This document shows, piece after piece, positions 17,073 through 64,000 of a stretch of 64,000 nucleotides of DNA; positions within the stretch are counted from its first letter, which is position 1; each line of letters begins with the position of its first letter. This stretch comes from Steroidobacteraceae bacterium. Lineage in GTDB: Bacteria > Pseudomonadota > Gammaproteobacteria > Steroidobacterales > Steroidobacteraceae. The position numbers were made by a program, and so were the translations under genes. Under the pieces are notes generated by a model. The model saw nothing but the letters and a program-made list of their open reading frames with translations. It did no database searches and had not been told where the DNA came from. The DNA is taken from positions 282-64,281 of the forward strand of contig DATMIB010000067.1 of the NCBI GenBank assembly GCA_035554635.1. The letters run 5' to 3'.

Positions 17073-18149
17073 CAGGAAGCGAATGCGCCCCTGCGCGTCG
17101 ACCTGCCGCTCGAGGTCGCCCGCATGCCAGAGGCAGTTCAGGTGCGCGACCGTCTCCCCCACCGCAAGGAAGCGGTGGAAGCCGCGCAGTGGCCGGCCGT
17201 ACATCACGGCCAGCAGTTCGTAGGCACTGCGGGGCTGGTCGCGACAGGCCTCGCGCAGGGCCTCGAGCTGCTGCAGGTGGTGCGAACGCAGCACTTCGAT
17301 GCGACGGTGCAGTCCGCGAAACGGCCGGCCGTGCGACGGCAGCACGAGCGTGCCGCGGGCACAGTGTTGCGCAAGCCGTCCGAGCGACTCCAGGTACTCG
17401 GCCAGCGGGTTCGCATCCGGACGCGAGGCCAGCACGCTGACGTTCGGTGAGATCGTCGGCAGCACCTGGTCGCCGCTGATCAGCACTTCGTGCTCGGCGT
17501 CGTACAGGCACAGGTGTCCGCGGCAGTGCCCACTGGTCTCGATGACCTGCCAGTTGCGTCCGCCCGCCTCGAGCACGTCGCCGCCCGCGGTCGGCCGCCC
17601 GAGCGGTGGCAAGCCGCCATACCACCGTCCGTGCTCGTCGCCGGCGGAACGCTGCTGCGCCTCGGCCGAGACGTCCATGCCGTGCGCGGCGACGAATGCG
17701 AAGCGCCGCGCGTGCACGGCTTCGCCGGTCATCGCCAGGTACTCGGCGGTCGAAGCGTGACCGATCGGGGACATCCACACCGGCGCGCCGTGGCGTTCGT
17801 GCAGCCAGCGCGACAGGCCCATGTGGTCGGGGTGGTCGTGCGTGACGACGATGCGACGCAAGGGCCGGCCCTGCAGCACGCCTGTTTCGAGCGTTTCCCA
17901 CGCCGCGCGACAGACCTCTTCCGCGAGACCCGTGTCCACGAGCAGCCAGCCGTCGGCTTCCGGCATCAGCCACACGTTGATGTGGTTGAGCTCCATCGGC
18001 AGCGGGATGCGGGCCCACACGAGGCCCACGTCGATCGCCATGGCGTGCGCCGGCTCCGGCGGCGGCAGCTCGAGGTAGTCGAGCGCGTGCCGCGGCGAGG
18101 GATAGAGCTCGCCCTCGGCGGTGATCTTGTCGCGGTCTGCGCGGGTCAT
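17064..18149 (-). CDS. MBL-fold metallo-hydrolase
   Basis: LLVDTGL...IVVTHDHPDHMGL (HxHxDH)..ETSGHCRGHL..SGD..LPSHG. ATG at 18149 makes an ATGA overlap with the lnt stop. The track ORF to 19508 is an out-of-frame upstream extension over lnt. Confidence 0.85.
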
Positions 18150-19696
18150 GCGACGGCCGCCTGCCGTGCCCTGCGCTGCCTGGCGAACACGCCGAGCACC
18201 AGGCCGAACGCCAGCAGCACGACCGGCACGTTGCCCCAACGCACGTAGGGCGTGAGCCCGGTGCGCGGCTGCACCTCGCCGCGGAGCACGCCCGGCTGGA
18301 ACTGCGGCAACGTCGCGCGCAAGGCACCGTCGGCGGCGATCAGCGCGGTCATGCCGTCGTTGGTCGCGCGCAGCATGTCGCGCCCGCTTTCGAGCGAACG
18401 CATGCGGCTGATGTCGAGGTGCTGGTGCGGCGCGGTCGAATCGCCGAACCACGCGTCGTTGGTGACGTTGACCAGCAGCGTCGACTCGCGCACGAGCCGC
18501 AGTTGCTCCGAGCCGTAGGCATCCTCGTAACAGACGGTCGGTGCGAGCGTCTGCGCGGCCGCGCGCAGCGGCGCCTGCTGCTCGCTGCCCGACTGGAAGT
18601 CCGAGTACGGCAGGTTCATCAGCCGCATCCACTCGCGGACGCGTGCCGGCACGGGGAAGAACTCCCCGAACGGCACCAGCCGCCGCTTGTCGTACCACTG
18701 CGGTTGCGGCCGCGAGTCGTGCGTCCAGCCCGCGATCGAGTTGTAGTGGGCACCGTTCGTCGCGTCGCGACGGATCAGCCCCATCACCAGCGACGAGCCG
18801 CTCGCGAGCGCCGCACCCGACACCTGCGCGAGGTACGGCCGGATGTACTCCTCGAGCGACGGCACCGCCGATTCCGGCCACACGATGATGTCGGCGCCGA
18901 GGTGCGGCGCGGTGAGGTCGACGTAGAGCTGCATCGTGCGCTCGCGCTGCGACGCTTCCCACTTCATTGCCTGCGGCACGGCGCCCTGCACGAGCGCCAC
19001 CTGCACAGGGCCGTCCACGGGGCGTGTCCACGGCACGACCACGAGCAATGCGCCGACCACCCACAGGGCGACGGCGGTGCCGCCCGCCGCGATGCGCTCG
19101 CGGCGTGTCGTGGCGAGCACCAACGCCGCCAGCGCGCCGGCCGTGATCGCGACCGCGAGGCTCACGCCGTAGACACCAAGCACCGGCGCATAACCGCGCA
19201 ACGACGTCGCGAGTTGCGTGTAGCCGAGCGCGAGCCACGGGAAGCCGCTCATGAGCCAGCCGCGCAGCCACTCGGACAGCACCCACAGCGACGGCAGCAC
19301 GAGCAGCCAACGCGTCAGCCCCACGGCCGGTGCCCAGCGCGCGACGACGTAGCCGACCAGTGCGCTGTAGGCCCCCATGATCGCCACGAGCCCGAGCATC
19401 AGGAACAACGCGATCCACACCGGCGCCTGACCGACGAGGTGGATGCTGTGGTAGAGCCAGTAGGTGGCCGCGAGGAACGTGCCGCCGGTGAACAGGAAGC
19501 CACGCCACGCGGCTTCGCGCGGGCCGACGCCGTGCCAGAGCACGAACAGTGCCGCCGGGCAGGCCACGGCGAGTGGCTGCCAGGCCGTCGGCGCGAATGC
19601 CAGCGCGAGCAGCAGGCCGAGCGGCAGCGCGAGCCAGCGTCCCCAGGCGAGGACGCCGCGCAGCGACGCGGGCCGGCTCACGGCCTCAACGGCCAT
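18146..19696 (-). CDS. lnt: apolipoprotein N-acyltransferase
   Basis: 516 aa; multi-TM N-terminus followed by a C-N hydrolase domain (VALVQGAVPQ..WPESAVP..YDKRRLVPFGEF..VCYEDAY); downstream of corC. Confidence 0.92.
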   Translation of the reverse strand: MAVEAVSRPASLRGVLAWGRWLALPLGLLLALAFAPTAWQPLAVACPAALFVLWHGVGPREAAWRGFLFTGGTFLAATYWLYHSIHLVGQAPVWIALFLMLGLVAIMGAYSALVGYVVARWAPAVGLTRWLLVLPSLWVLSEWLRGWLMSGFPWLALGYTQLATSLRGYAPVLGVYGVSLAVAITAGALAALVLATTRRERIAAGGTAVALWVVGALLVVVPWTRPVDGPVQVALVQGAVPQAMKWEASQRERTMQLYVDLTAPHLGADIIVWPESAVPSLEEYIRPYLAQVSGAALASGSSLVMGLIRRDATNGAHYNSIAGWTHDSRPQPQWYDKRRLVPFGEFFPVPARVREWMRLMNLPYSDFQSGSEQQAPLRAAAQTLAPTVCYEDAYGSEQLRLVRESTLLVNVTNDAWFGDSTAPHQHLDISRMRSLESGRDMLRATNDGMTALIAADGALRATLPQFQPGVLRGEVQPRTGLTPYVRWGNVPVVLLAFGLVLGVFARQRRARQAAVA

Positions 19697-20555
19697 CCGG
19701 CGCAGGACGCACGTCCGGCGTCGTCACCCGCAGCGTCTCGATGCGGCGGCGATCCGCCCGCGTCACCTTGAGCTCGAGGCCGCCGATCTGGATCGCCTCG
19801 CCGCGTCGCGGCATGCGGCCGAGTTCGTGCAGCACGAGACCGCCGATCGTGTCGGCCTCCTCGTCGGAGAACCGCGTGCCGAAGGCTTCGTTGAATTCCT
19901 CGATGCGCGTGAGCGCGGGCACGGTCCAGGCGCGGTCGGCCTCCTTGCGGATGCCCTCGCCTTCGTCGACGTCGTACTCGTCGCCGATGTCGCCGACGAT
20001 CTGCTCGAGCACGTCCTCGATCGTGAGCAACCCGGAGACGCCGCCGTACTCGTCGACGACGATCGCCATGTGGTTGTGGCTCACGCGGAATTCCTTGAGC
20101 AGCACGTTGAGGCGCTTGCTCTCGGGGATGAACACGGCCGGGCGCAGGCACTCGCGGATGTCGAAATGGTCGCGGCTTTCCTCGACGAAGAACCGCAGCA
20201 GGTCCTTCGCGAGCAGGATGCCGACGACCTCGTCGCGGTCCTCGCCGACGACCGGGAAGCGCGAGTGGCCGGACTCGATCACCACCGGCAGGATCTTTTC
20301 GGGCGGGTCCTCGCGGTGGATCACGACCATCTGCGAGCGTGCCACCATCACGTCCCGGACCTGGATCTCGGAGACCTGCAGCACGGACTCGAGCATCTCG
20401 AGCACGTCGCCGTCGATCAGCCCGCGCTCGCGCGCGTCGGCGAGCACGTCGCCCAGCTGCTCGAGATCCCGCGGCTCGCCCGTCAGCGTCTCGGCGAGGC
20501 GCCGCAACCAACCGCCGCCCGAGGACGACGAACCCGTATGCCCGTTATTACTCAT
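19686..20555 (-). CDS. corC: HlyC/CorC-family (CBS-domain) magnesium/cobalt efflux protein
   Basis: [40 protein letters not shown] (CBS pair), then a CorC_HlyC C-terminal domain. ybeZ-ybeY-ybeX-lnt synteny. Confidence 0.9.
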
Positions 20556-21168
20556 ACCTTGCCGTGGTGACCCTGGTACGGGTCATCAAACCCCAATCGC
20601 TGCAGGATTTCCACTTCGAGCTTTTCCATCTTGCCCGCGGCGCGCGGCTGCTCGTGGTCGTAACCGAGCAGGTGCAGCGTGCCGTGCACGACCATGTGCG
20701 CCCAGTGCGCCGACAGCGGCTTGCCCTGCTCGCGCGCCTCGCGCGCGACGACCGGCGCGCAGACGACCAGGTCGCCAAGCGCGCCTTCGTAGCGGCATTC
20801 CTCCGTCGATGCGGGGAATGAAAGCACGTTGGTCGGTTTGGGCTTGCCGCGGAACCCTTCGTTCAGTCGATGACTTTCGGTGTTGCCGACGACTCGCACG
20901 CAGACTGTCGGCGCGACGCCCTGATCCGGTGCGCGGGCACGCTTGCGACTGCGTGGCAGCGCGGTCGAACCCGCGTCCCAGGCCGCGCGCGCCCAGCGAC
21001 GCAACAGCACCGGGCCCGGCACTCCGGCCGGCCGCCGCGCGTACTGCACGTCGACCCGCAGGTCCGCACCGCTGCGATCGGCGGTCGCGGCACGCGCCGT
21101 CGCGCGCGACGACGTCGGCCTGCGCGCAGGGGGAGGTTCGGCGGAACGCGACTCGGTGCCCTTGCGCA

Positions 21169-57401: not shown

Positions 57402-57674
57402 GTGGAGAGAAGACTCACGACGCGTCACCGGGCCCGCACCAGCGTCTACGTGCTGCTGCCGGGCCGGCGCCATCGTCTCTGCCGCGCCCGCAACCTGAGC
57501 GCCACGGGCGTCTTCGTCGAGACCGGCGACATGGGCCTGCGCAAGGGACAGACGGTCGAACTCGCCTTCGCCATCAGCCTCGGCACCGTGACCAAGCTGC
57601 ATCGACGCACGGCCATCGTCGCGCACGTCTCGCGCGGCGGCACCGGGCTGATGATGCAGAACCACGCCAGCTGA
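57402..57674 (+). CDS. small PilZ-domain protein (about 90 aa)
   Basis: VERRLTTRHRARTSVYVLL..CRARNLSATGVFVET carries an RxxxR-like motif plus N-x-S-x-x-G, the c-di-GMP-binding signature of PilZ. The start (GTG 57402) is uncertain. Confidence 0.6.
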   Translation: MERRLTTRHRARTSVYVLLPGRRHRLCRARNLSATGVFVETGDMGLRKGQTVELAFAISLGTVTKLHRRTAIVAHVSRGGTGLMMQNHAS

Positions 57675-57675
57675 C

Positions 57676-57698
57676 CGCCCGCGTCCGCGACGCGGGCG
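57676..57698 (+). terminator. perfect 10-bp GC hairpin just after the PilZ gene (no T tract)
   Basis: cgcccgcgtc-cgc-gacgcgggcg starts 2 nt after the stop codon. Confidence 0.4.
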
Positions 57699-57805
57699 AC
57701 TCGCGGATCCCGCAGCCGTCCTAGGCAGTTCTGCGGATTCGGGGCACCTGCGCCGGGCCTAATGTCCGCTCAGGAGACGCGCTGCACGACCAGGCGACCC
57801 GCCTC

Positions 57806-58165
57806 GTGCCGTGCGGCGCGGATGCGCCGATGGCACCGCGGACGCCAGACAGCACAGTCGCCGACGCGATCGATCGCGTCCTGCAGGCCGAGCAAGCGAC
57901 GGCCGAGGCGATCCACGCAGCCGAAGAATCCGCCGCCGCCACGATCGCCGCCGCGCGCGAAACGCGCCGCACCCTGCTCGAGACCGCCCGCCGGCGCAGC
58001 GTGCGCATGCACGAACGCGCGCAGGCGCTGCTTGCACGTCGCCTGAGCGAACTCGACGGCGCCGCCGCTACGGCGCAGGTCCGCGACCGCGGCGAGCTCG
58101 CCGCAAGCGTGACGACCGCGATCGACCGCATCGCCGCGCAACTCACGACGGAAGAGCCGGCATGA
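57806..58165 (+). CDS. coiled-coil protein, probable V/A-type ATPase peripheral-stalk subunit (G/H-like)
   Basis: Ala/Glu/Arg-rich helical sequence ADAIDRVLQAEQATAEAIHAAEESAAATIAAARETRRTLLETARRR... First gene of the operon; its stop overlaps the next ATG (ATGA). Start is GTG 57806 or ATG 57830. The assignment rests on composition and position only. Confidence 0.5.
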   Translation: MPCGADAPMAPRTPDSTVADAIDRVLQAEQATAEAIHAAEESAAATIAAARETRRTLLETARRRSVRMHERAQALLARRLSELDGAAATAQVRDRGELAASVTTAIDRIAAQLTTEEPA

Positions 58166-58929
58166 CCGGCGTCCACGGCACTTTCGGTTACGCGCAATCG
58201 CGCATGCAGGCCCGGCTCGGCCGGCAGGCGGGCGTGCCCGGCCTGGTGCAGATGCGCGAGGCACGCACCCTCGTCGCGTACCTGCAGCAGGTGCGCAGCT
58301 CGCCCTGGTCGCGGCACGTCGCGCGTCTCGCACCGGACATGGATGCCCACGACCTCGAACGGCGGCTCCGCGAGGAGTGGCACTCGGCGGTCGAGGAAGT
58401 TGCGCGCTGGCAGCCACGCGAATGGCAAGCTGCCGTGCGCTGGCTCGGCTGGCTGCCGTGGCTGCCGGCGTTGCAGAAACTCGCGCGCGGCGGCCGCACA
58501 CCGGCCTGGACCCGCGAGGACGAGGTCCTCGCGCGCATCGTCGCCGCCACGCGCGAGACGCGTGCCGAGCGGCTCGAAGCCACGCCGTTGTACCCGCTGC
58601 GGCAGGCGGTCGCCGGCCACGGCGACGTCGTTGCCGCGTGGCTTGCGCATTGGCGTGGCCTCTGGACCGCCGACGCCGACGAACACGCCGGACTCGAGGG
58701 ACTGGTCGCCTCGACGCGTCGCGCCGTCCGGCTGCTCGCGAGCGACGACGCCGGCAACGCGACCGAGCTTGCACTACGGTCGTACGCGCACGCGTTGCGC
58801 CGGTCGTTCCGTCGCCATCCGCTCAGCGCGACGGCGGCCGTCGCGTACCTGGGTCTCGTCGCGCTCGACCTGCTGGAACTGCGCGGCGCCGCTGCCGTGC
58901 GCGCGGCGCTGCCGGCGATACCAGCATGA
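58162..58929 (+). CDS. V/A-type ATPase subunit C (eukaryotic d-like), short form
   Basis: N-terminus FGYAQSRMQARLGRQ.. resembles the YxYxNARVRAM start of the AC39 family. All-helical, 255 aa. ATGA overlaps at both ends. Confidence 0.55.
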   Translation: MTGVHGTFGYAQSRMQARLGRQAGVPGLVQMREARTLVAYLQQVRSSPWSRHVARLAPDMDAHDLERRLREEWHSAVEEVARWQPREWQAAVRWLGWLPWLPALQKLARGGRTPAWTREDEVLARIVAATRETRAERLEATPLYPLRQAVAGHGDVVAAWLAHWRGLWTADADEHAGLEGLVASTRRAVRLLASDDAGNATELALRSYAHALRRSFRRHPLSATAAVAYLGLVALDLLELRGAAAVRAALPAIPA

Positions 58930-60758
58930 TGCTGCGGGCCGACACGGCGCGCTGGTTCGAGCTGCTCACCTCGCGCGAGGAACTCGGTGCGGCGCTGGAG
59001 ACACTGGCGCGGACCCGCTCGGTGCAGCTGCAGTCGCACAGCGAGGCGACGACGCGGCTGCCGCTCCAGGACCTGCGTGAGCTGTTGTCGCGTTACGAAA
59101 CCCTCGCACGACGTCACGCGCGCTGGTGGCCCACGCCGCAGTTCCGTGCAGCCGGCCCCGGACGGGTGCTTCTCGAGACGCCGCGCGCGGCCCTCGACTC
59201 CGTGCAGGCGTGGGCACGCGCCGCCGAGCCGGTCGTCGCGGAACTCGAAGCGCTCGCGGTCGAACAGGAAGACCTCGCCGCGCTCGCCCGGCTCTGCGCC
59301 GACTCCCCCGCCGCCTTGCCGCGCCTCGACCGCGTTGCGACGGCGGGCCCGGTGCTCGCGAGCCGGCTGTACCTGCTGCCGCGCGGCACCGGCGTGCCGC
59401 CGTTGCCGCCGGCCGCGCTGGCACAGTGCTGTGCCGGCCTGCAGGCCGAGGAGACCTTCCTGCTCGTCGTCGGACCGCAGGAGGACCTGCCCGGTCTCGA
59501 CGCTGCGATTTCGGCGCGCCGGGGCCGACGGATCCCGCTGCCGACGAACCTGCCCGGCGGGCGGACGGAGTTGCCTGCCGCGATCGCGGACCGGGCCGCT
59601 CGGCTGCAGGCGCGCGTCGCGCACGCCCAGACGGCACTGCGGCGCCTGGACGAACTGCACGCGCTGGCACCGGCGCTCGGCGACCTCGCCCGTACGGCAT
59701 GGCTCGTCGCCGCCGTGCCGGAACTGCCCGTGACCGAGCACTTCGCCTGGATCACGGGCTGGTGCGCCGACGCGGACGATGCGGGGCTGCGTGCCGCACT
59801 CGACGCGCGCGGTCTGCACTACCTGTTGCACACACCCGCTGCGCCGTCCGGCGTCACGCCGCCCTCCGTGCTGCGCAATCCCCGCTGGGTACGGCCGTTC
59901 GAGGGCATGACGGCGATGATGGGCCTGCCGGCCAGCGGCGAAGCCGACCCGAGCGTGATCGTCGCGATCATCGCGCCGCTGATGTTCGGCTACATGTTCG
60001 GCGACGTCGTACAGGGCGCGATCATCGCGCTGCTCGGCGCCTGGCTCGGCGCCCGTGTGCCGGCACTGCGGCTGCTGGTGCCCGGCGGCCTCGTGGCGAT
60101 CGTGTTCGGCTTCGTCTTTGGCAGTGCCTTCGCGCGTGAGGACCTCGTCGCTCCGTTGTGGCTGCACCCGCTCGAGCAACCCTTGCCCGTGCTCGTCGTG
60201 GCGCTGTGCTTCGGCGCGGCGACGCTGCTGCTCGGTCTCGGGCTCGATGCGTTGCAACGCTCGTGGCAAGGCGGCCTGCGGCGATGGCTCGCGACCGACG
60301 CGGGCCTCGTGCTCGCCTACCTTGGCAGCGTCGGCGCACTGGTCGACGCACGCGCGCTGTGGGCCCTGCCGCTCGGCATCGGCTGGACGCTGCTCGGCGC
60401 CGCGACAGCGCGGCCGGAAGCACGCGCGAGTGCGGTCGTGCAGGCGGCCGGCACGACGCTCGAGCGGCTGCTGCAGCTAGCGGTCAACACGCTGTCGTTC
60501 GTGCGCGTCGGCGCCTTCGCGCTCGCCCACGCCGGCCTGTCCGCGGCCGTGGTCGGCATCGCCGAGATCGCAGGCGCGGGGTACTGGCCCGTGCTGGTGC
60601 TCGGCAACGTCGCGATCATCGCGCTCGAGGGCCTGGTCGTGAGCATCCAGACCACGCGCCTGGTGCTGTTCGAATTCTTCATTCGTTTCCTCACGGCGCG
60701 CGGCCGTCCGTTCGAGCCGCTCGCGCCGCCGCCCGCCCTGCCCGGAGGCACTACATGA
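58926..60758 (+). CDS. ntpI: V/A-type ATPase subunit I (a)
   Basis: 610 aa: a soluble N-terminal half and a roughly 290-aa polytopic C-terminal half with the stator-arginine helix NTLSFVRVGAFALAH and a terminal ALEGLVVSIQTTRLVLFEFFIRF motif. Confidence 0.85.
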   Translation: MMLRADTARWFELLTSREELGAALETLARTRSVQLQSHSEATTRLPLQDLRELLSRYETLARRHARWWPTPQFRAAGPGRVLLETPRAALDSVQAWARAAEPVVAELEALAVEQEDLAALARLCADSPAALPRLDRVATAGPVLASRLYLLPRGTGVPPLPPAALAQCCAGLQAEETFLLVVGPQEDLPGLDAAISARRGRRIPLPTNLPGGRTELPAAIADRAARLQARVAHAQTALRRLDELHALAPALGDLARTAWLVAAVPELPVTEHFAWITGWCADADDAGLRAALDARGLHYLLHTPAAPSGVTPPSVLRNPRWVRPFEGMTAMMGLPASGEADPSVIVAIIAPLMFGYMFGDVVQGAIIALLGAWLGARVPALRLLVPGGLVAIVFGFVFGSAFAREDLVAPLWLHPLEQPLPVLVVALCFGAATLLLGLGLDALQRSWQGGLRRWLATDAGLVLAYLGSVGALVDARALWALPLGIGWTLLGAATARPEARASAVVQAAGTTLERLLQLAVNTLSFVRVGAFALAHAGLSAAVVGIAEIAGAGYWPVLVLGNVAIIALEGLVVSIQTTRLVLFEFFIRFLTARGRPFEPLAPPPALPGGTT

Positions 60759-61108
60759 ACGCTTCGCGCCCGCGCTGGACCTTCGCCCTGACGCTCGTCA
60801 CCGCCACGACCCTCGTCGTCGCCACGCTGGCCCTGGTGCTGGCGTGGCCGGCGCTGGCCCAGTCGGTCGAGCCGCGCATCGTCGCGCCCGAAGTCGTGCG
60901 CTGGGGCTTCGCCGCGGCGGCGCTCGCCGCCGGCCTCGCGGCCCTCGGCGCGGGGTATGCGGTCGCGCAGGTCGGCACGGCGGCACTCGGCACGCTCGCC
61001 GAGAAGCCCGACCTGTTCGGCCGCGTGCTCGTGCTGGTCGGCCTCGCCGAGGGCATCGCCATCTACGGCCTGATCGTTTCGATCCTGATCCTGAACCGGC
61101 TCGGCTGA
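60755..61108 (+). CDS. ntpK: V/A-type ATPase proteolipid subunit K (c), single hairpin
   Basis: Gly/Ala-rich helix GLAALGAGYAVAQVGTAALGTLAEKPDLF plus a second helix VLVGLAEGIAIYGLIVSILI with the conserved carboxylate. Preceded by a signal-peptide-like segment. Confidence 0.85.
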   Translation: MNASRPRWTFALTLVTATTLVVATLALVLAWPALAQSVEPRIVAPEVVRWGFAAAALAAGLAALGAGYAVAQVGTAALGTLAEKPDLFGRVLVLVGLAEGIAIYGLIVSILILNRLG

Positions 61109-61109
61109 C

Positions 61110-61412
61110 ATGGCACGCGTCCTCTATCTCGGCGACGAAGTGACCGCCGCGGGCCTGCGGCTCGCCGGCGTCGATACGCTCGTGGTCGCCCCGGGCAACG
61201 CGGTGGCCGAGACACTGCGCGAAACGCTCGAAGACGACTGCGACTGCGTGCTGCTGTCCGCCGCGCTGGTGCCGTGCATTCCTGCGCCACGACTGCAGGA
61301 CGCGCTGCGATGCGGGTCGCCATTGCTGGCCGTCGTGCCGGACGTGCGCAGCGAGGAGCGCCTGCCGGACCTCGCGGCGGAGGTGCGCGACGCGCTGGGG
61401 CTCGAGGCATGA
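61110..61412 (+). CDS. V/A-type ATPase subunit F
   Basis: MARVLYLGDEVTAAGLRLAGVDTLVV.. is the typical subunit-F start (IAVIGDxDTVxGFRLAG pattern); 100 aa. Confidence 0.75.
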   Translation: MARVLYLGDEVTAAGLRLAGVDTLVVAPGNAVAETLRETLEDDCDCVLLSAALVPCIPAPRLQDALRCGSPLLAVVPDVRSEERLPDLAAEVRDALGLEA

Positions 61413-62068
61413 ACGCCGTCACCGTGCTCGAAACACAGACCCGGGCGCTGCTCGAGCGGCTGGCCAGGGAACAGGCTGCCCGGACGCAACGGCTGCGCGA
61501 CGAGGCCGCGGCACAGGCACGCGACATCGTGCGGCATGCGCGCACCGAGGCGCGCGAGCGCATCCACGAGGCCGTGCAGCAGACTCGACGCGAGCACGCG
61601 ACCGCGTTGCAGCGCCGTCGCGCGGCACTCGACACGCAACGCCGACGCGAGCACCAGGCCGCGCTGCGACGCTGGCTCGAGGACGCCTGGCAGCGGCTGC
61701 CCAGCGCCCTCGAGACGCGCTGGCTCGACCGCACGCAGCGCGAAGCCTGGTGCCGCGCCGCCTGTCGCCAGGCGGTGCAGAGCCTCGTGCACGGCGACAG
61801 GCTCGTGGTCCGGATCGATCCGCGCTGGCAGGAAGAATTGCGCCCGGTCGTCGAGCGCAGCTTGCCGGCCACCGGGAACGGCACGCTCGACGTCGTGCCG
61901 GTCGCGGGCCTCGGCGCCGGGCTCACGATCACGGGCGGCCGCGCCCAGGTCGACGCCACGCTCGCCGGCCTGCTGGCGGCGCGCGAACGCATCACGGCCG
62001 CGTTGCTGGCGGAAATCGAGACGGCCATCGAACCCGTGCATGATGCCGGGCAGAGCACCCCCGCATGA
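61409..62068 (+). CDS. V/A-type ATPase subunit E
   Basis: Long Arg/Glu/Ala-rich N-terminal helix followed by a C-terminal globular part ending ..GGRAQVDATLAGLLAARERITAALLAEI (the GG..xDxTlexll pattern of vATP-synt_E); 219 aa. Confidence 0.7.
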   Translation: MNAVTVLETQTRALLERLAREQAARTQRLRDEAAAQARDIVRHARTEARERIHEAVQQTRREHATALQRRRAALDTQRRREHQAALRRWLEDAWQRLPSALETRWLDRTQREAWCRAACRQAVQSLVHGDRLVVRIDPRWQEELRPVVERSLPATGNGTLDVVPVAGLGAGLTITGGRAQVDATLAGLLAARERITAALLAEIETAIEPVHDAGQSTPA

Positions 62069-63822
62069 GCACGGCACGCATCACCTGGATCGGCGGGCCG
62101 GTGCTGCGCGCCCGCACCGAGGGCTCGTTCGGCATCTTCGAGGCGGTCGCGATCGGCACACGCGGCCTGCTCGGCGAAGTGATCCAGTTGCGCTCGGACG
62201 AACTCGTCGCCCAGGTCTACGAGGACACGACCGGGCTCGAACCGGGCATGACGGTCACCGGGCTCGCGCGACCGCTGTCGGTGCCGCTCGGGCCCGGCCT
62301 GCTCGGCGGCATCTTCGACGGCTTGCTGCGACCGTTGACGGGCACCGACGACTTCCAGGTGCTGCCCGGCGCACAGGCCCGACTCGACGTGCAATGCGAG
62401 GTTCGCTTCGGCGTGCAGCCGGGTGATCGACTCGAGCCCGGCACCGCCTACGCCGAGGTGCACGCCGCGGGGGCGCGCCAGCAGTGGTTGCTGGTGCCGC
62501 CGGACGCGCGTGGGGTCGTGCACGAGGTTGCCGCGGACGGCGTGCATGGCAGCGACGAGGTGCTGCTCTTGCTGGTCGCGGACGACGGCACGCGTCACGG
62601 GCTCAAGCTGCACCACGACTGGCCGGTGCGCAGGCCGCGTCCCGTCCGTGAGCGGCTGGGTGCGCACGCCCCGATGATCACGGGGCAGCGCATCCTCGAC
62701 ACGCTGTTCCCGGTCGCGCGCGGCGGGCGCGCGGCGCTGCCCGGCGGCTTCGGCACCGGCAAGACCGTGCTGCAGGAAGCACTGGCGAAATGGTGCGACG
62801 CCGACGTGATCGTTTACGTCGGTTGTGGCGAGCGCGGCAACGAAATGGCCGAAGTGCTCGACGAGTTCCCGCAGCTGGAGGACCCGCGCACGGGGCGGCC
62901 GCTCGCCGAACGCACCGTGATCATCGCCAATACCTCGAACATGCCGGTGGCCGCGCGCGAGGCCAGCATCTACACGGCAATCACGGTCGCCGAATACTTC
63001 CGCGACCAGGGGCTGCACGTCGCGCTGATGGCGGACTCGACCAGCCGCTGGGCCGAAGCCCTGCGCGAAGTGTCGGGACGGCTCGGCGAGTTGCCGGGCG
63101 AGGCAGGGTACCCGGCGTACCTGAGCTCGCGGCTCGCGGAGTTCTACGAGCGCGCCGCGCGCGTGACGACGCTCGGCGGCCAGGAAGGCTCGGTGACGAT
63201 CATCGGTGCAATCAGCCCGCCCGCCGGCGATTTCTCCGAACCGGTGACGCTGCACACCAAGCGCTACGTGCGCTGCTTCTGGGCGCTCGACCGGCAGCGT
63301 GCGCAGGCCCGCTTCTATCCGGCCGTGCACCCGTTGCTGTCCTACGGCGCCGACACGGGCGAACTTGCCGACTGGTGGAAGGCCGCGGGCAATCCCGACT
63401 GGATGACGCAGCGACGACGCGCGCTCGAACTGCTCGAGGCACAGGCCCACCTCGAGCGCATGGCACGCATCGTGGGTCGCGACGCGCTGCCGTCGCAACA
63501 GCAGGTGAAGCTGCTCTGCGCCGACCTGCTCAACGAGGGCTTCCTGCGGCAGTCCTCGTTCTCGCCGGTCGACCGCTACTGCTCGCCGGCGCGCCAGGTG
63601 GCGATGCTCGCCGCGCTGCTGCACTTCATGGACCGCGCCGAGGCGGCGGTGGCCGCAGGCGTCGAACCGGCGCGCATCGCGGAAATCCCGCTGCTGCGCA
63701 CGCTGCAACGGCTCGGCGAGGAACTCGGCGAGACCGACCTGCCGCGGCTCCGCGAGCTGCCGCGCGAGATCGACCTGCAGTTCGATCGCCAGCCCGCACC
63801 GGAGACGGCCCATGCGCGCTGA
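62065..63822 (+). CDS. ntpA: V/A-type ATPase catalytic subunit A
   Basis: ITWIGGPVLRAR..; PGGFGTGKTVLQ (Walker A); VYVGCGERGNEMAEVL; VIIANTSNMPVAAREASIYTAITVAEYFRDQG; LMADSTSRWAEALREVSGRLGELPGEAGYPAYL. 585 aa with the A-subunit-specific insert. Confidence 0.95.
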   Translation: MSTARITWIGGPVLRARTEGSFGIFEAVAIGTRGLLGEVIQLRSDELVAQVYEDTTGLEPGMTVTGLARPLSVPLGPGLLGGIFDGLLRPLTGTDDFQVLPGAQARLDVQCEVRFGVQPGDRLEPGTAYAEVHAAGARQQWLLVPPDARGVVHEVAADGVHGSDEVLLLLVADDGTRHGLKLHHDWPVRRPRPVRERLGAHAPMITGQRILDTLFPVARGGRAALPGGFGTGKTVLQEALAKWCDADVIVYVGCGERGNEMAEVLDEFPQLEDPRTGRPLAERTVIIANTSNMPVAAREASIYTAITVAEYFRDQGLHVALMADSTSRWAEALREVSGRLGELPGEAGYPAYLSSRLAEFYERAARVTTLGGQEGSVTIIGAISPPAGDFSEPVTLHTKRYVRCFWALDRQRAQARFYPAVHPLLSYGADTGELADWWKAAGNPDWMTQRRRALELLEAQAHLERMARIVGRDALPSQQQVKLLCADLLNEGFLRQSSFSPVDRYCSPARQVAMLAALLHFMDRAEAAVAAGVEPARIAEIPLLRTLQRLGEELGETDLPRLRELPREIDLQFDRQPAPETAHAR

Positions 63823-64000
63823 CCTGCTGCTGCACGACGTCGTCACCCGCATCGAGGGGCCGCTGCTGTTCGCGCGACGCGAGGCGCACATCGGCCTCAA
63901 CTGCGCCGTCGAGGTGTTGCAGCAGGGCCGGCCCGCGCGGCTCGGACGCGTCGCCGCGCTCGACGACGCGAGCATGGTCTTCGAGGTGCTCGAGGAGACC
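63812..64000 (+). CDS. ntpB: V/A-type ATPase subunit B, N-terminal 63 codons (runs off the window)
   Basis: MRADLLLHDVVTRIEGPLLFARREAHIGLNCAVEVL.. is the N-terminal beta-barrel pattern of B subunits. The ATG at 63812 overlaps the end of A by 11 nt. Confidence 0.75.
   Translation, partial: MRADLLLHDVVTRIEGPLLFARREAHIGLNCAVEVLQQGRPARLGRVAALDDASMVFEVLEET

Follow-up and report, generated by a model that had tools for sequence, protein, structure and literature searches.

A rearranged nine-gene A/V-type rotary ATPase operon with a putatively shortened d subunit in Steroidobacteraceae and related Gammaproteobacteria

A stretch of 64,000 nucleotides from a Steroidobacteraceae bacterium (contig DATMIB010000067.1 of assembly GCA_035554635.1; hereafter the window) ends in a series of tightly packed plus-strand genes, which a sequence-only reading took for a V/A-type rotary ATPase operon of unusual gene order. 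The locus raises the questions of whether these genes encode a complete enzyme of this type in a gammaproteobacterium, what its first two open reading frames (ORF1 and ORF2) are, and in which direction such an enzyme would operate. We propose, with a probability of about 0.75, that an operon of nine plus-strand genes, G/H-d-I-K-F-E-A-B-D, begins in the window, its first eight genes occupying positions 57806-64000, and that it encodes a complete, intact and proton-coupled A/V-type enzyme that resembles the Thermus and archaeal enzymes in build. The subunit identities, the intact motifs and the conserved order and synteny are demonstrated; H+ coupling, direction of operation and physiological role are inferred. 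The machine is not new in kind: the nine subunits are those of a standard A/V-type enzyme, with a rearranged operon and a trimmed d subunit that is missed by current profiles. Enzymes of the A/V-type have been documented before in Bacteria, also in Proteobacteria (PMC10656485, PMC2359735, PMC6504805), and their occurrence in Bacteria is unsurprising. V-type operons have been described in Nitrosococcus, Anaeromyxobacter and Geobacter (PMC2359735) and in a Methylobacter-related methanotroph (PMC6119699), while a search of the literature on Steroidobacter and Steroidobacteraceae with V-type ATPase returned incidental mentions only.

The eight coupled genes were reproduced together with all of their junctions. 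In the reading-frame map, five junctions are ATGA start/stop overlaps (58162, 58926, 60755, 61409 and 62065), a gap of 1 nt lies between the end of K at 61108 and the start of F at 61110, and the end of A at 63822 overlaps the start of B at 63812 by 11 nt. None of the seven operon frames that lie wholly within the window is broken. Every motif quoted in the sequence-only reading was found (LSFVRVGAFALAH in I, GLAEGIAIYG in K and GGFGTGKT in A), to which the GERGNEM of A can be added. Within the window, the frames and motifs agree with the earlier impression of a working enzyme.

Catalytic subunit A matches NF003220 (E = 2e-211, 703 bits, cut-off 470) and contains four Pfam domains, PF16886 (the A-specific barrel-sandwich insert), PF00006, PF02874 and PF22919. 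Its Walker A motif begins at residue 227 and the catalytic GERGNEM at residue 255. Bit scores against PDB sequences, used here as a crude substitute for an A/B phylogeny, are 589 for Pyrococcus, 538 for Thermus, ~494 for the plant V-type, 488 for Enterococcus and ~476 for the yeast V-type. An F-type or N-type identity for the operon was also considered and rejected, the scores of A being 118 against a cut-off of 463 for F-type beta and 133 against 752 for alt_F1F0 beta. Subunit K matches the alt_F1F0 c model with an E value of only 0.0064, and no F-type subunits were found in the operon by profile search. The N-ATPase (alternate F1Fo, atpDCQRBEFAG) is a second rotary ATPase that accompanies the main enzyme in many Proteobacteria, but it is of the F-type.

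Membrane subunit I matches PF01496 (E = 8.6e-12, 44 bits, cut-off 30.7) and NF004434 (1.6e-37), and its matches in a PDB sequence search are the a/I subunits of Thermus, Enterococcus and eukaryotes. The NCBIfam subunit-I equivalog cut-offs were reached neither by the window protein, which stays far below them, nor by the four distant clade members tested. The essential Arg of the LSFVRVGAFALAH stator motif is Arg527; all related loci have the same S-F-x-R-x-G-A-F core around it and differ by minor substitutions in the remainder of the motif. Proteolipid subunit K matches PF00137 (3.9e-18, 65.9 bits, cut-off 24) and the subunit K model NF004888 (4.9e-19). It consists of an N-terminal hydrophobic helix and a single helical hairpin bearing one carboxylate, and it aligns lengthwise, the N-terminal helix included, with the 102-residue Thermus subunit K (8ywt_O), its residues 27-116 corresponding to residues 9-99. 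The GLAEGIAIYG motif, including the Glu, is invariant across all informative loci.

The stalk subunits are more divergent. Subunit F matches PF01990 (6.6e-07, 30 bits, cut-off 23.5) and NF003047 (0.002), and the position of its gene is conserved in all loci. Subunit E alone gives weak matches, below curated cut-offs, to PF01991 (0.011) and NF002629 (0.0038). A 24-sequence profile of the E family matches subunit E of Pyrococcus horikoshii (2dm9) over nearly the full length at 1.8e-4, and PF01991 is matched by 9 of the 24 members. In the single-sequence model of E, an N-terminal helix of 95 residues leads into an alpha/beta domain (predicted local distance difference test, pLDDT, 79.7; predicted template-modelling score, pTM, 0.43); a Foldseek search with this model returned only meaningless matches. 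The 63 residues of B within the window match NF003235 at 7.8e-4 over residues 10-63. All related loci that reach beyond this point have a full B gene of 463 residues here and then D (PF01813); in the present genome, the rest of B and a D gene after it would lie past the window end. On the features of A, I, K, d, F and the E-G/H pair, with d recognized by its predicted fold and by sub-threshold AC39 matches in relatives, the operon is an A/V-type rotary ATPase operon.

ORF1 had been read from a GTG at 57806, which would give a protein of 119 residues. The reading frame itself stands. Its homologues, however, align from the Met at 57830, giving 111 residues, and an independent gene call on an identical contig of the Logan collection also gives 111 residues; the GTG is probably not the real start. 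Inspected by eye, the protein is mostly one long helix rich in Ala, Arg and Glu. ORF1 alone matches the AhaH model TIGR02926 weakly, below curated cut-offs (E = 0.0058). In the family alignment, PF16999 (V-ATPase_G_2) is found in 11 of 20 members, the best match being 2.4e-5, V-ATPase_G in 8 of 20, and ATP-synt_B, the F-type b family, in 6 of 20. Most related loci carry a reading frame at the same position. Because V-ATPase_G_2 recurs in the family, AhaH is matched and the position fits, we assign ORF1 as the putative G/H-type stalk partner of E.

The ORF2 protein has no match in Pfam or NCBIfam, and d-family profiles built from 35 and 70 sequences gave no V-ATPase match among PDB sequences. 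An AlphaFold model from a 35-homologue alignment is all-helical, with six long helices (pLDDT 87.4, pTM 0.87). When this model was compared to the PDB with Foldseek, the best 13 matches were all V-ATPase subunit d of yeast, human, bovine or rat, or Thermus d (8ywt_M), with probabilities of 0.96-1.00 and TMq of 0.45-0.67. Later matches have probabilities of at most 0.41 and are unrelated, except at ranks 17 and 25, where two more chains of subunit d appear (E >1). The Pfam model PF01992 (vATP-synt_AC39) matches 15 of 70 diverse d-family members, mostly aligning their first 100 residues with the start of the model; the best match (9.5e-6, 25.6 bits) lies under the gathering score of 29. Based on the fold matches of the model and the recurrence of AC39 among relatives, ORF2 is predicted to be a shortened d subunit (bacterial C). 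At 255 residues it is about 70 residues shorter than the Thermus chain (322), and eukaryotic chains in the match list reach ~350. Solved d subunits consist of three helix-pair domains, and the six-helix model would fit a trimmed version of this fold. No description of a shortened d subunit or of this gene order was found in a literature search.

Table 1. Features of the operon and its upstream region (positions in the window)
Feature	Coordinates	Strand	Basis
Putative G/H-type peripheral-stalk subunit, 111 aa	57830..58165	+	Family Pfam matches, AhaH match, position
Predicted shortened d (bacterial C, AC39) rotor adaptor, 255 aa	58162..58929	+	Predicted fold, sub-threshold AC39 in relatives
Subunit I (a), membrane stator	58926..60758	+	PF01496, NF004434, Arg527 motif
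Subunit K (c) proteolipid, 117 aa	60755..61108	+	PF00137, NF004888
Subunit F, central stalk	61110..61412	+	PF01990
Subunit E, peripheral stalk	61409..62068	+	Weak PF01991/NF002629, family profile vs 2dm9
Catalytic subunit A	62065..63822	+	NF003220, four Pfam domains, motifs
N-terminus of subunit B, truncated by window end	63812..64000	+	NF003235, position in relatives
Conserved non-coding block 5' of ORF1	57720..57765	+	Spacer alignment from PilZ-like gene to ORF1, 14 loci

The gene order does differ, as first noticed, from the operons of Enterococcus, Thermus and Methanosarcina, but many other genomes share it. When genomes were scanned, one for each species, 52 loci were located, all in Steroidobacteraceae or in unclassified gammaproteobacterial metagenome-assembled genomes (MAGs), and every complete locus among them has the order G/H-d-I-K-F-E-A-B-D, with D after B, in tblastn comparisons. 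Four distant loci (L058-L061), with guanine-plus-cytosine (GC) contents of 0.50-0.70 and A subunits 58-66% identical, have the identical nine-gene order. The relatives share the order, and none is fully annotated or characterized. A search with the d family returned 259 proteins, all of ~255 residues, without Pfam domains and called "hypothetical" wherever the source gives a name. Contigs bearing these proteins repeat the gene order, with the neighbors of the window upstream and a UbiA-family gene and an MtrB/PioB porin gene downstream. An exhaustive profile search extended the family to 752 clusters at 50% identity, 613 of them below 1e-10 and nearly all of 240-280 residues. The seemingly non-canonical order is the fixed order of a large, mainly gammaproteobacterial clade with a d subunit of ~255 residues. 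Named carriers of the short d are MAGs only, labelled Steroidobacteraceae, Thiohalomonadaceae, Gammaproteobacteria or Pseudomonadota, and a search for cultured carriers of the gene returned only MAG entries and "hypothetical protein" labels. The species-representative genomes did not include that of the window, and their best d match is 55-56% identical; the sole identical d gene is on a 3.7-kb Logan contig (SRR23059839), and an exact-match look-up with the A subunit returned nothing.

The assembled enzyme would comprise an A3B3 head, a central rotor of D, F and d, peripheral stalks of E and G/H, the stator I, and a ring of single-hairpin c subunits with one Glu each. In this scheme, passage of H+ between Arg527 of I and the Glu of the c-ring would make the ring rotate relative to A3B3, together with d, D and F. 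We infer that the enzyme is H+-coupled, because the residue after the Glu is Gly, with no Ser or Thr, and because the Gln of helix 1 is not conserved (Q, N, K or M among the loci). With a carboxylate in every hairpin, the ion-to-ATP ratio should be high enough for ATP synthesis. Considering that this arrangement is the one found in the ATP-synthesizing enzymes of Thermus and archaea, we judge that the enzyme works reversibly as an ATP synthase rather than as an obligate pump. The single-hairpin ring makes ATP synthesis thermodynamically feasible; it does not prove the direction.

The V/A-ATPase of Thermus thermophilus resembles the window enzyme in its nine-subunit inventory, in a very similar A subunit, in a d subunit that is among the fold matches of ORF2, and in a K subunit of the same c type, with ~100 residues, an N-terminal helix and one hairpin with one Glu. 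H+ coupling and reversible synthase function are expected for both enzymes. Differences are the Thermus gene order, atpG-I-L-E-C-F-A-B-D, whereas in the window d precedes I and F precedes E, so that the operon is not of the Thermus/Deinococcus type; the longer Thermus d, whose shortened counterpart here escapes sequence profiles; and the window I, which is very divergent from the full-length Thermus I (phmmer E = 1.5e-4). The window host is also a mesophile-like, high-GC gammaproteobacterium. The archaeal A1AO ATP synthase is similar in that Pyrococcus has the best-scoring solved A, the E profile leads to Pyrococcus E, and ORF1 is weakly AhaH-like. It is set apart by its gene order (ahaHIKECFABD in Methanosarcina), the shorter d of the window, the bacterial host, and an A subunit that scores 671 bits against TIGR01043, under the equivalog cut-off of 972.

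The direction of operation is where an alternative comes closest. It is quite possible, if short of probable, that the same enzyme runs mainly in reverse in vivo, as an ATP-driven proton pump auxiliary to a conventional F-type ATP synthase encoded elsewhere. Such a pump would keep pH or proton-motive force in balance, for instance when energy is scarce or oxygen absent. Gammaproteobacteria normally carry the operon atpIBEFHAGDC. The main ATP synthase of a cell usually shows higher codon adaptation than the mid-range values of the ATPase genes other than K, 0.54-0.63 against ~0.69-0.93 for the ribosomal and EF-Tu genes of the window. MenA-type and MtrB/PioB neighbors in relatives, described below, hint at low-potential or anaerobic respiration. 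A/V-type genes are found in 23 of 50 bacterial phylum-level lineages (46%), and an auxiliary pumping role gains its plausibility from the 19 of these 23 that also keep the F-type (PMC10656485). V-type operons in other Proteobacteria (PMC6119699) and in Nitrospira (PMC13109103) were interpreted as acid or ion-homeostasis pumps, and c-subunit architecture alone does not decide the direction of operation (PMC9171764). The codon adaptation, the co-occurrence with F-type enzymes and the ambiguity of the c-subunit weigh against our proposal, as do two points on completeness: the window ends inside B, so that intact B and D genes in this genome would follow from the relatives, and the G/H and E assignments draw on weak profile matches together with gene position. 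A pump is nevertheless at odds with the single-hairpin c subunit and its carboxylate in each hairpin, which is a synthase-type arrangement, with the closest solved relatives being synthases, with the fixed core-genome position over a wide clade, and with the cultured Thiohalobacter, which apparently depends on such an enzyme. We favor the reversible, proton-coupled synthase.

For Thiohalobacter thiocyanaticus HRh1, a cultured gammaproteobacterium, a "4-subunit" H+ V-type ATP synthase was reported together with an N-ATPase, a pairing its authors call rare, and in the absence of an ordinary F-type enzyme (PMC6504805). The listed locus tags are 14700 for I, 14705 for K, 14720 for A and 14725 for B, with two unlisted genes between K and A (PMC6504805). 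These tags fit the order I-K-F-E-A-B, the two unlisted genes being where the window has F and E, and would agree with the same gaps in annotation, since only four subunits were recognized there, as would be expected for the window operon. The gene order suggests that the operon of this halophilic sulfur oxidizer may belong to the same clade. A bolder proposal, which we consider improbable, is that in this uncultured Steroidobacteraceae-like lineage, and more broadly in the short-d clade, the F-type may have given way to the A/V-type enzyme as the main or only H+ ATP synthase, as is reported for Thiohalobacter, with the 255-residue d as a new rotor coupling, maybe co-regulated with a PilZ-like protein or a menaquinone/MtrB-PioB module. 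If it is true that some lineages lack the F-type, Bacteria would offer a second case of an ATP synthase exchanged outright, the first being Thermus and Deinococcus. A search for F-type alpha and beta genes in the window and 61 loci, which covered at most 10 kb on either side of the operon (~1 Mb) and is silent on the rest of the genomes, found only A-to-B cross-matches.

It is very unlikely that ORF1 and ORF2 encode novel accessory proteins with no relation to known rotary-ATPase subunits, in a complex without G/H and d. The sequence-only reading had left room for such proteins, and the lack of Pfam, NCBIfam and PDB sequence matches for ORF2 would suit them, as would the generic coiled-coil families such as DivIVA that match all 20 members of the ORF1 family. 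However, the fold search led to subunit d only. AC39 is the sole Pfam family that recurs widely among ORF2 relatives, in 15 of 70 against three for the next one, DUF6415; V-ATPase_G_2 recurs in 11 of the 20 ORF1 relatives; and gene calls at related loci offer no other operon gene that could be G/H or d. Both tentative assignments of the sequence-only reading are thus upheld, and the two genes appear to be divergent but orthodox G/H and d subunits.

A Na+-translocating V-type ATPase like the Ntp enzyme of Enterococcus hirae (ntpFIKECGABD) is hardly credible, although some proteobacterial V-type enzymes have been listed as Na+ candidates (PMC2359735). The two systems share the superfamily and the subunit set, with an A score of 488 bits, and differ in gene order. 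Enterococcus K has arisen by duplication to four helices and binds Na+ at a site formed by Thr/Gln plus Glu; the window K, a single hairpin of 117 residues without the Na+ ligands, is of another type. Duplicated, site-poor c subunits are those of Enterococcus and of eukaryotic pumps, unlike the window K. The Glu is followed by Gly, which leaves the site without a Ser/Thr ligand. Relatives have N, K or M in place of the helix-1 Gln, which would be a Na+ ligand, and keep the other residues of the site unchanged. The Enterococcus K, A and I are more distant than their Thermus and Pyrococcus counterparts.

Most of the 52 loci keep the flanks of the window, all upstream: aldo-keto reductase (AKR), TerC, glutamate racemase (MurI) and PilZ-like genes, with identities of 77-95% for PilZ and ~68-88% for MurI. 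In the flank-sharing Steroidobacteraceae-like loci, intact A genes are ~72-83% identical to the window A, and B genes are 64-91% identical to the B of the reference locus L002. The operon appears to be under strong purifying selection, with the core motif residues of the c-ring and stator invariant. The conservation of flanking genes in most loci argues for vertical inheritance of the operon at one chromosomal site in the Steroidobacteraceae-like group, and for an acquisition that is old; the earlier expectation that it was not recent is supported by the same synteny across dozens of genomes. The proteobacterial housekeeping context is also confirmed. A heuristic gene call on the minus strand of the window yields N-termini that, by recognition, we take to be those of ribosomal-protein, SecY, RpoA, EF-Tu, SSB, UvrA and LeuS genes, and Pfam gene calls in syntenic relatives place EF-Tu and ribosomal-protein genes upstream of the AKR-TerC-MurI-PilZ block.

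GC content is 0.71-0.74 in the operon and 0.64-0.72 elsewhere in the window, and the operon resembles its host in third-position GC (GC3) and codon use. In several MAG loci (L003/L019, L041, L047 and L055), mostly from the MFD bin series, the A, B or I gene is split or partial where other loci have it intact; our guess is that these scattered breaks are assembly indel errors rather than pseudogenes. A recent transfer, or an island in decay that does not function in its host, is very unlikely: an operon GC slightly above the rest of the window (0.74 versus ~0.69) and the broken A or I genes of some long-read MAG loci are countered by seven intact frames with all motifs present, the same locus and flanks in dozens of genomes, host-like GC3 and codon use, and the scatter of the breaks over MAG assemblies, mostly MFD bins, where assembly errors are possible.

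The assignments have consequences beyond the window. Two "hypothetical" genes become the missing G/H and d subunits, and a large, mostly uncultured gammaproteobacterial clade (~750 d clusters at 50% identity) bears a complete nine-subunit A/V-type enzyme. Since current Pfam and NCBIfam models recognize the enzyme only in part, an incomplete V-type ATPase is probably what metabolic reconstructions list for these bacteria of soil, sediment and wastewater, just as Thiohalobacter was credited with a "4-subunit" enzyme. The shortened d would also be a natural minimal rotor adaptor, useful for structural work.

Several minor features accompany the operon. The codon adaptation of the K gene, 0.82, is the operon maximum and lies far over the 0.54-0.63 of its neighbors; it fits a multi-copy stoichiometry, and the Ala/Gly/Leu-rich composition of the protein may contribute. 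Two long antisense reading frames, one of 970 residues over A/E/F (61063-63975, minus strand) and one of 693 residues over d/I (58188-60269, minus strand), were judged by inspection to be artefacts of the 72-74% GC content.

The PilZ-like gene is a 90-residue reading frame (57402-57674, plus strand) that immediately precedes the operon in almost every Steroidobacteraceae-like locus; in more distant loci it does not adjoin the operon. Its identity of 77-95% compares with ~40-60% for the H, d, F and E subunits. It has no NCBIfam match, and precomputed tables give its Pfam PilZ match as "weak". Just 3' of its stop codon lies a GC-rich inverted repeat (57677-57699), CGCCCGCGTC-CGC-GACGCGGGCG, without a T-run, which may be a terminator parting the PilZ-like gene from the ATPase operon. 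In the 14-locus spacer alignment, the conserved elements of the non-coding block are TTCTGCGGATTCG (57729-57741) and, after a spacing of ~16 nt, CCTAATGT (57758-57765), and the block is a candidate operon promoter or operator. A sigma-70 scan called no promoter directly upstream of ORF1, an Rfam search upstream of the operon found no family, and no FNR-type box was found upstream of the operon in the window. Over the whole window there are 14 near-matches to the FNR palindrome, versus 3.7 expected from shuffles.

The flanks of distant loci include genes for cyclic-nucleotide (cNMP)-binding or Crp/Fnr-family regulators or for a universal stress protein (L059, 112-588; L060, 10439-11134; L061, 8700-9512). 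In many relatives, the gene 3' of D encodes a MenA-type 1,4-dihydroxy-2-naphthoate prenyltransferase and is followed by a convergent gene for an MtrB/PioB outer-membrane porin (L002, L004 and L051). In L002 these genes are at 17728-18699 on the plus strand and 18748-20768 on the minus strand, and the MenA-type protein matches TIGR00751 with 115.6 bits (cut-off 102). Through these neighbors the operon may have a link with menaquinone or with extracellular electron transfer. A MenA-like gene is near the operon also in L050-L054, and a UbiA-family gene is found in L059.

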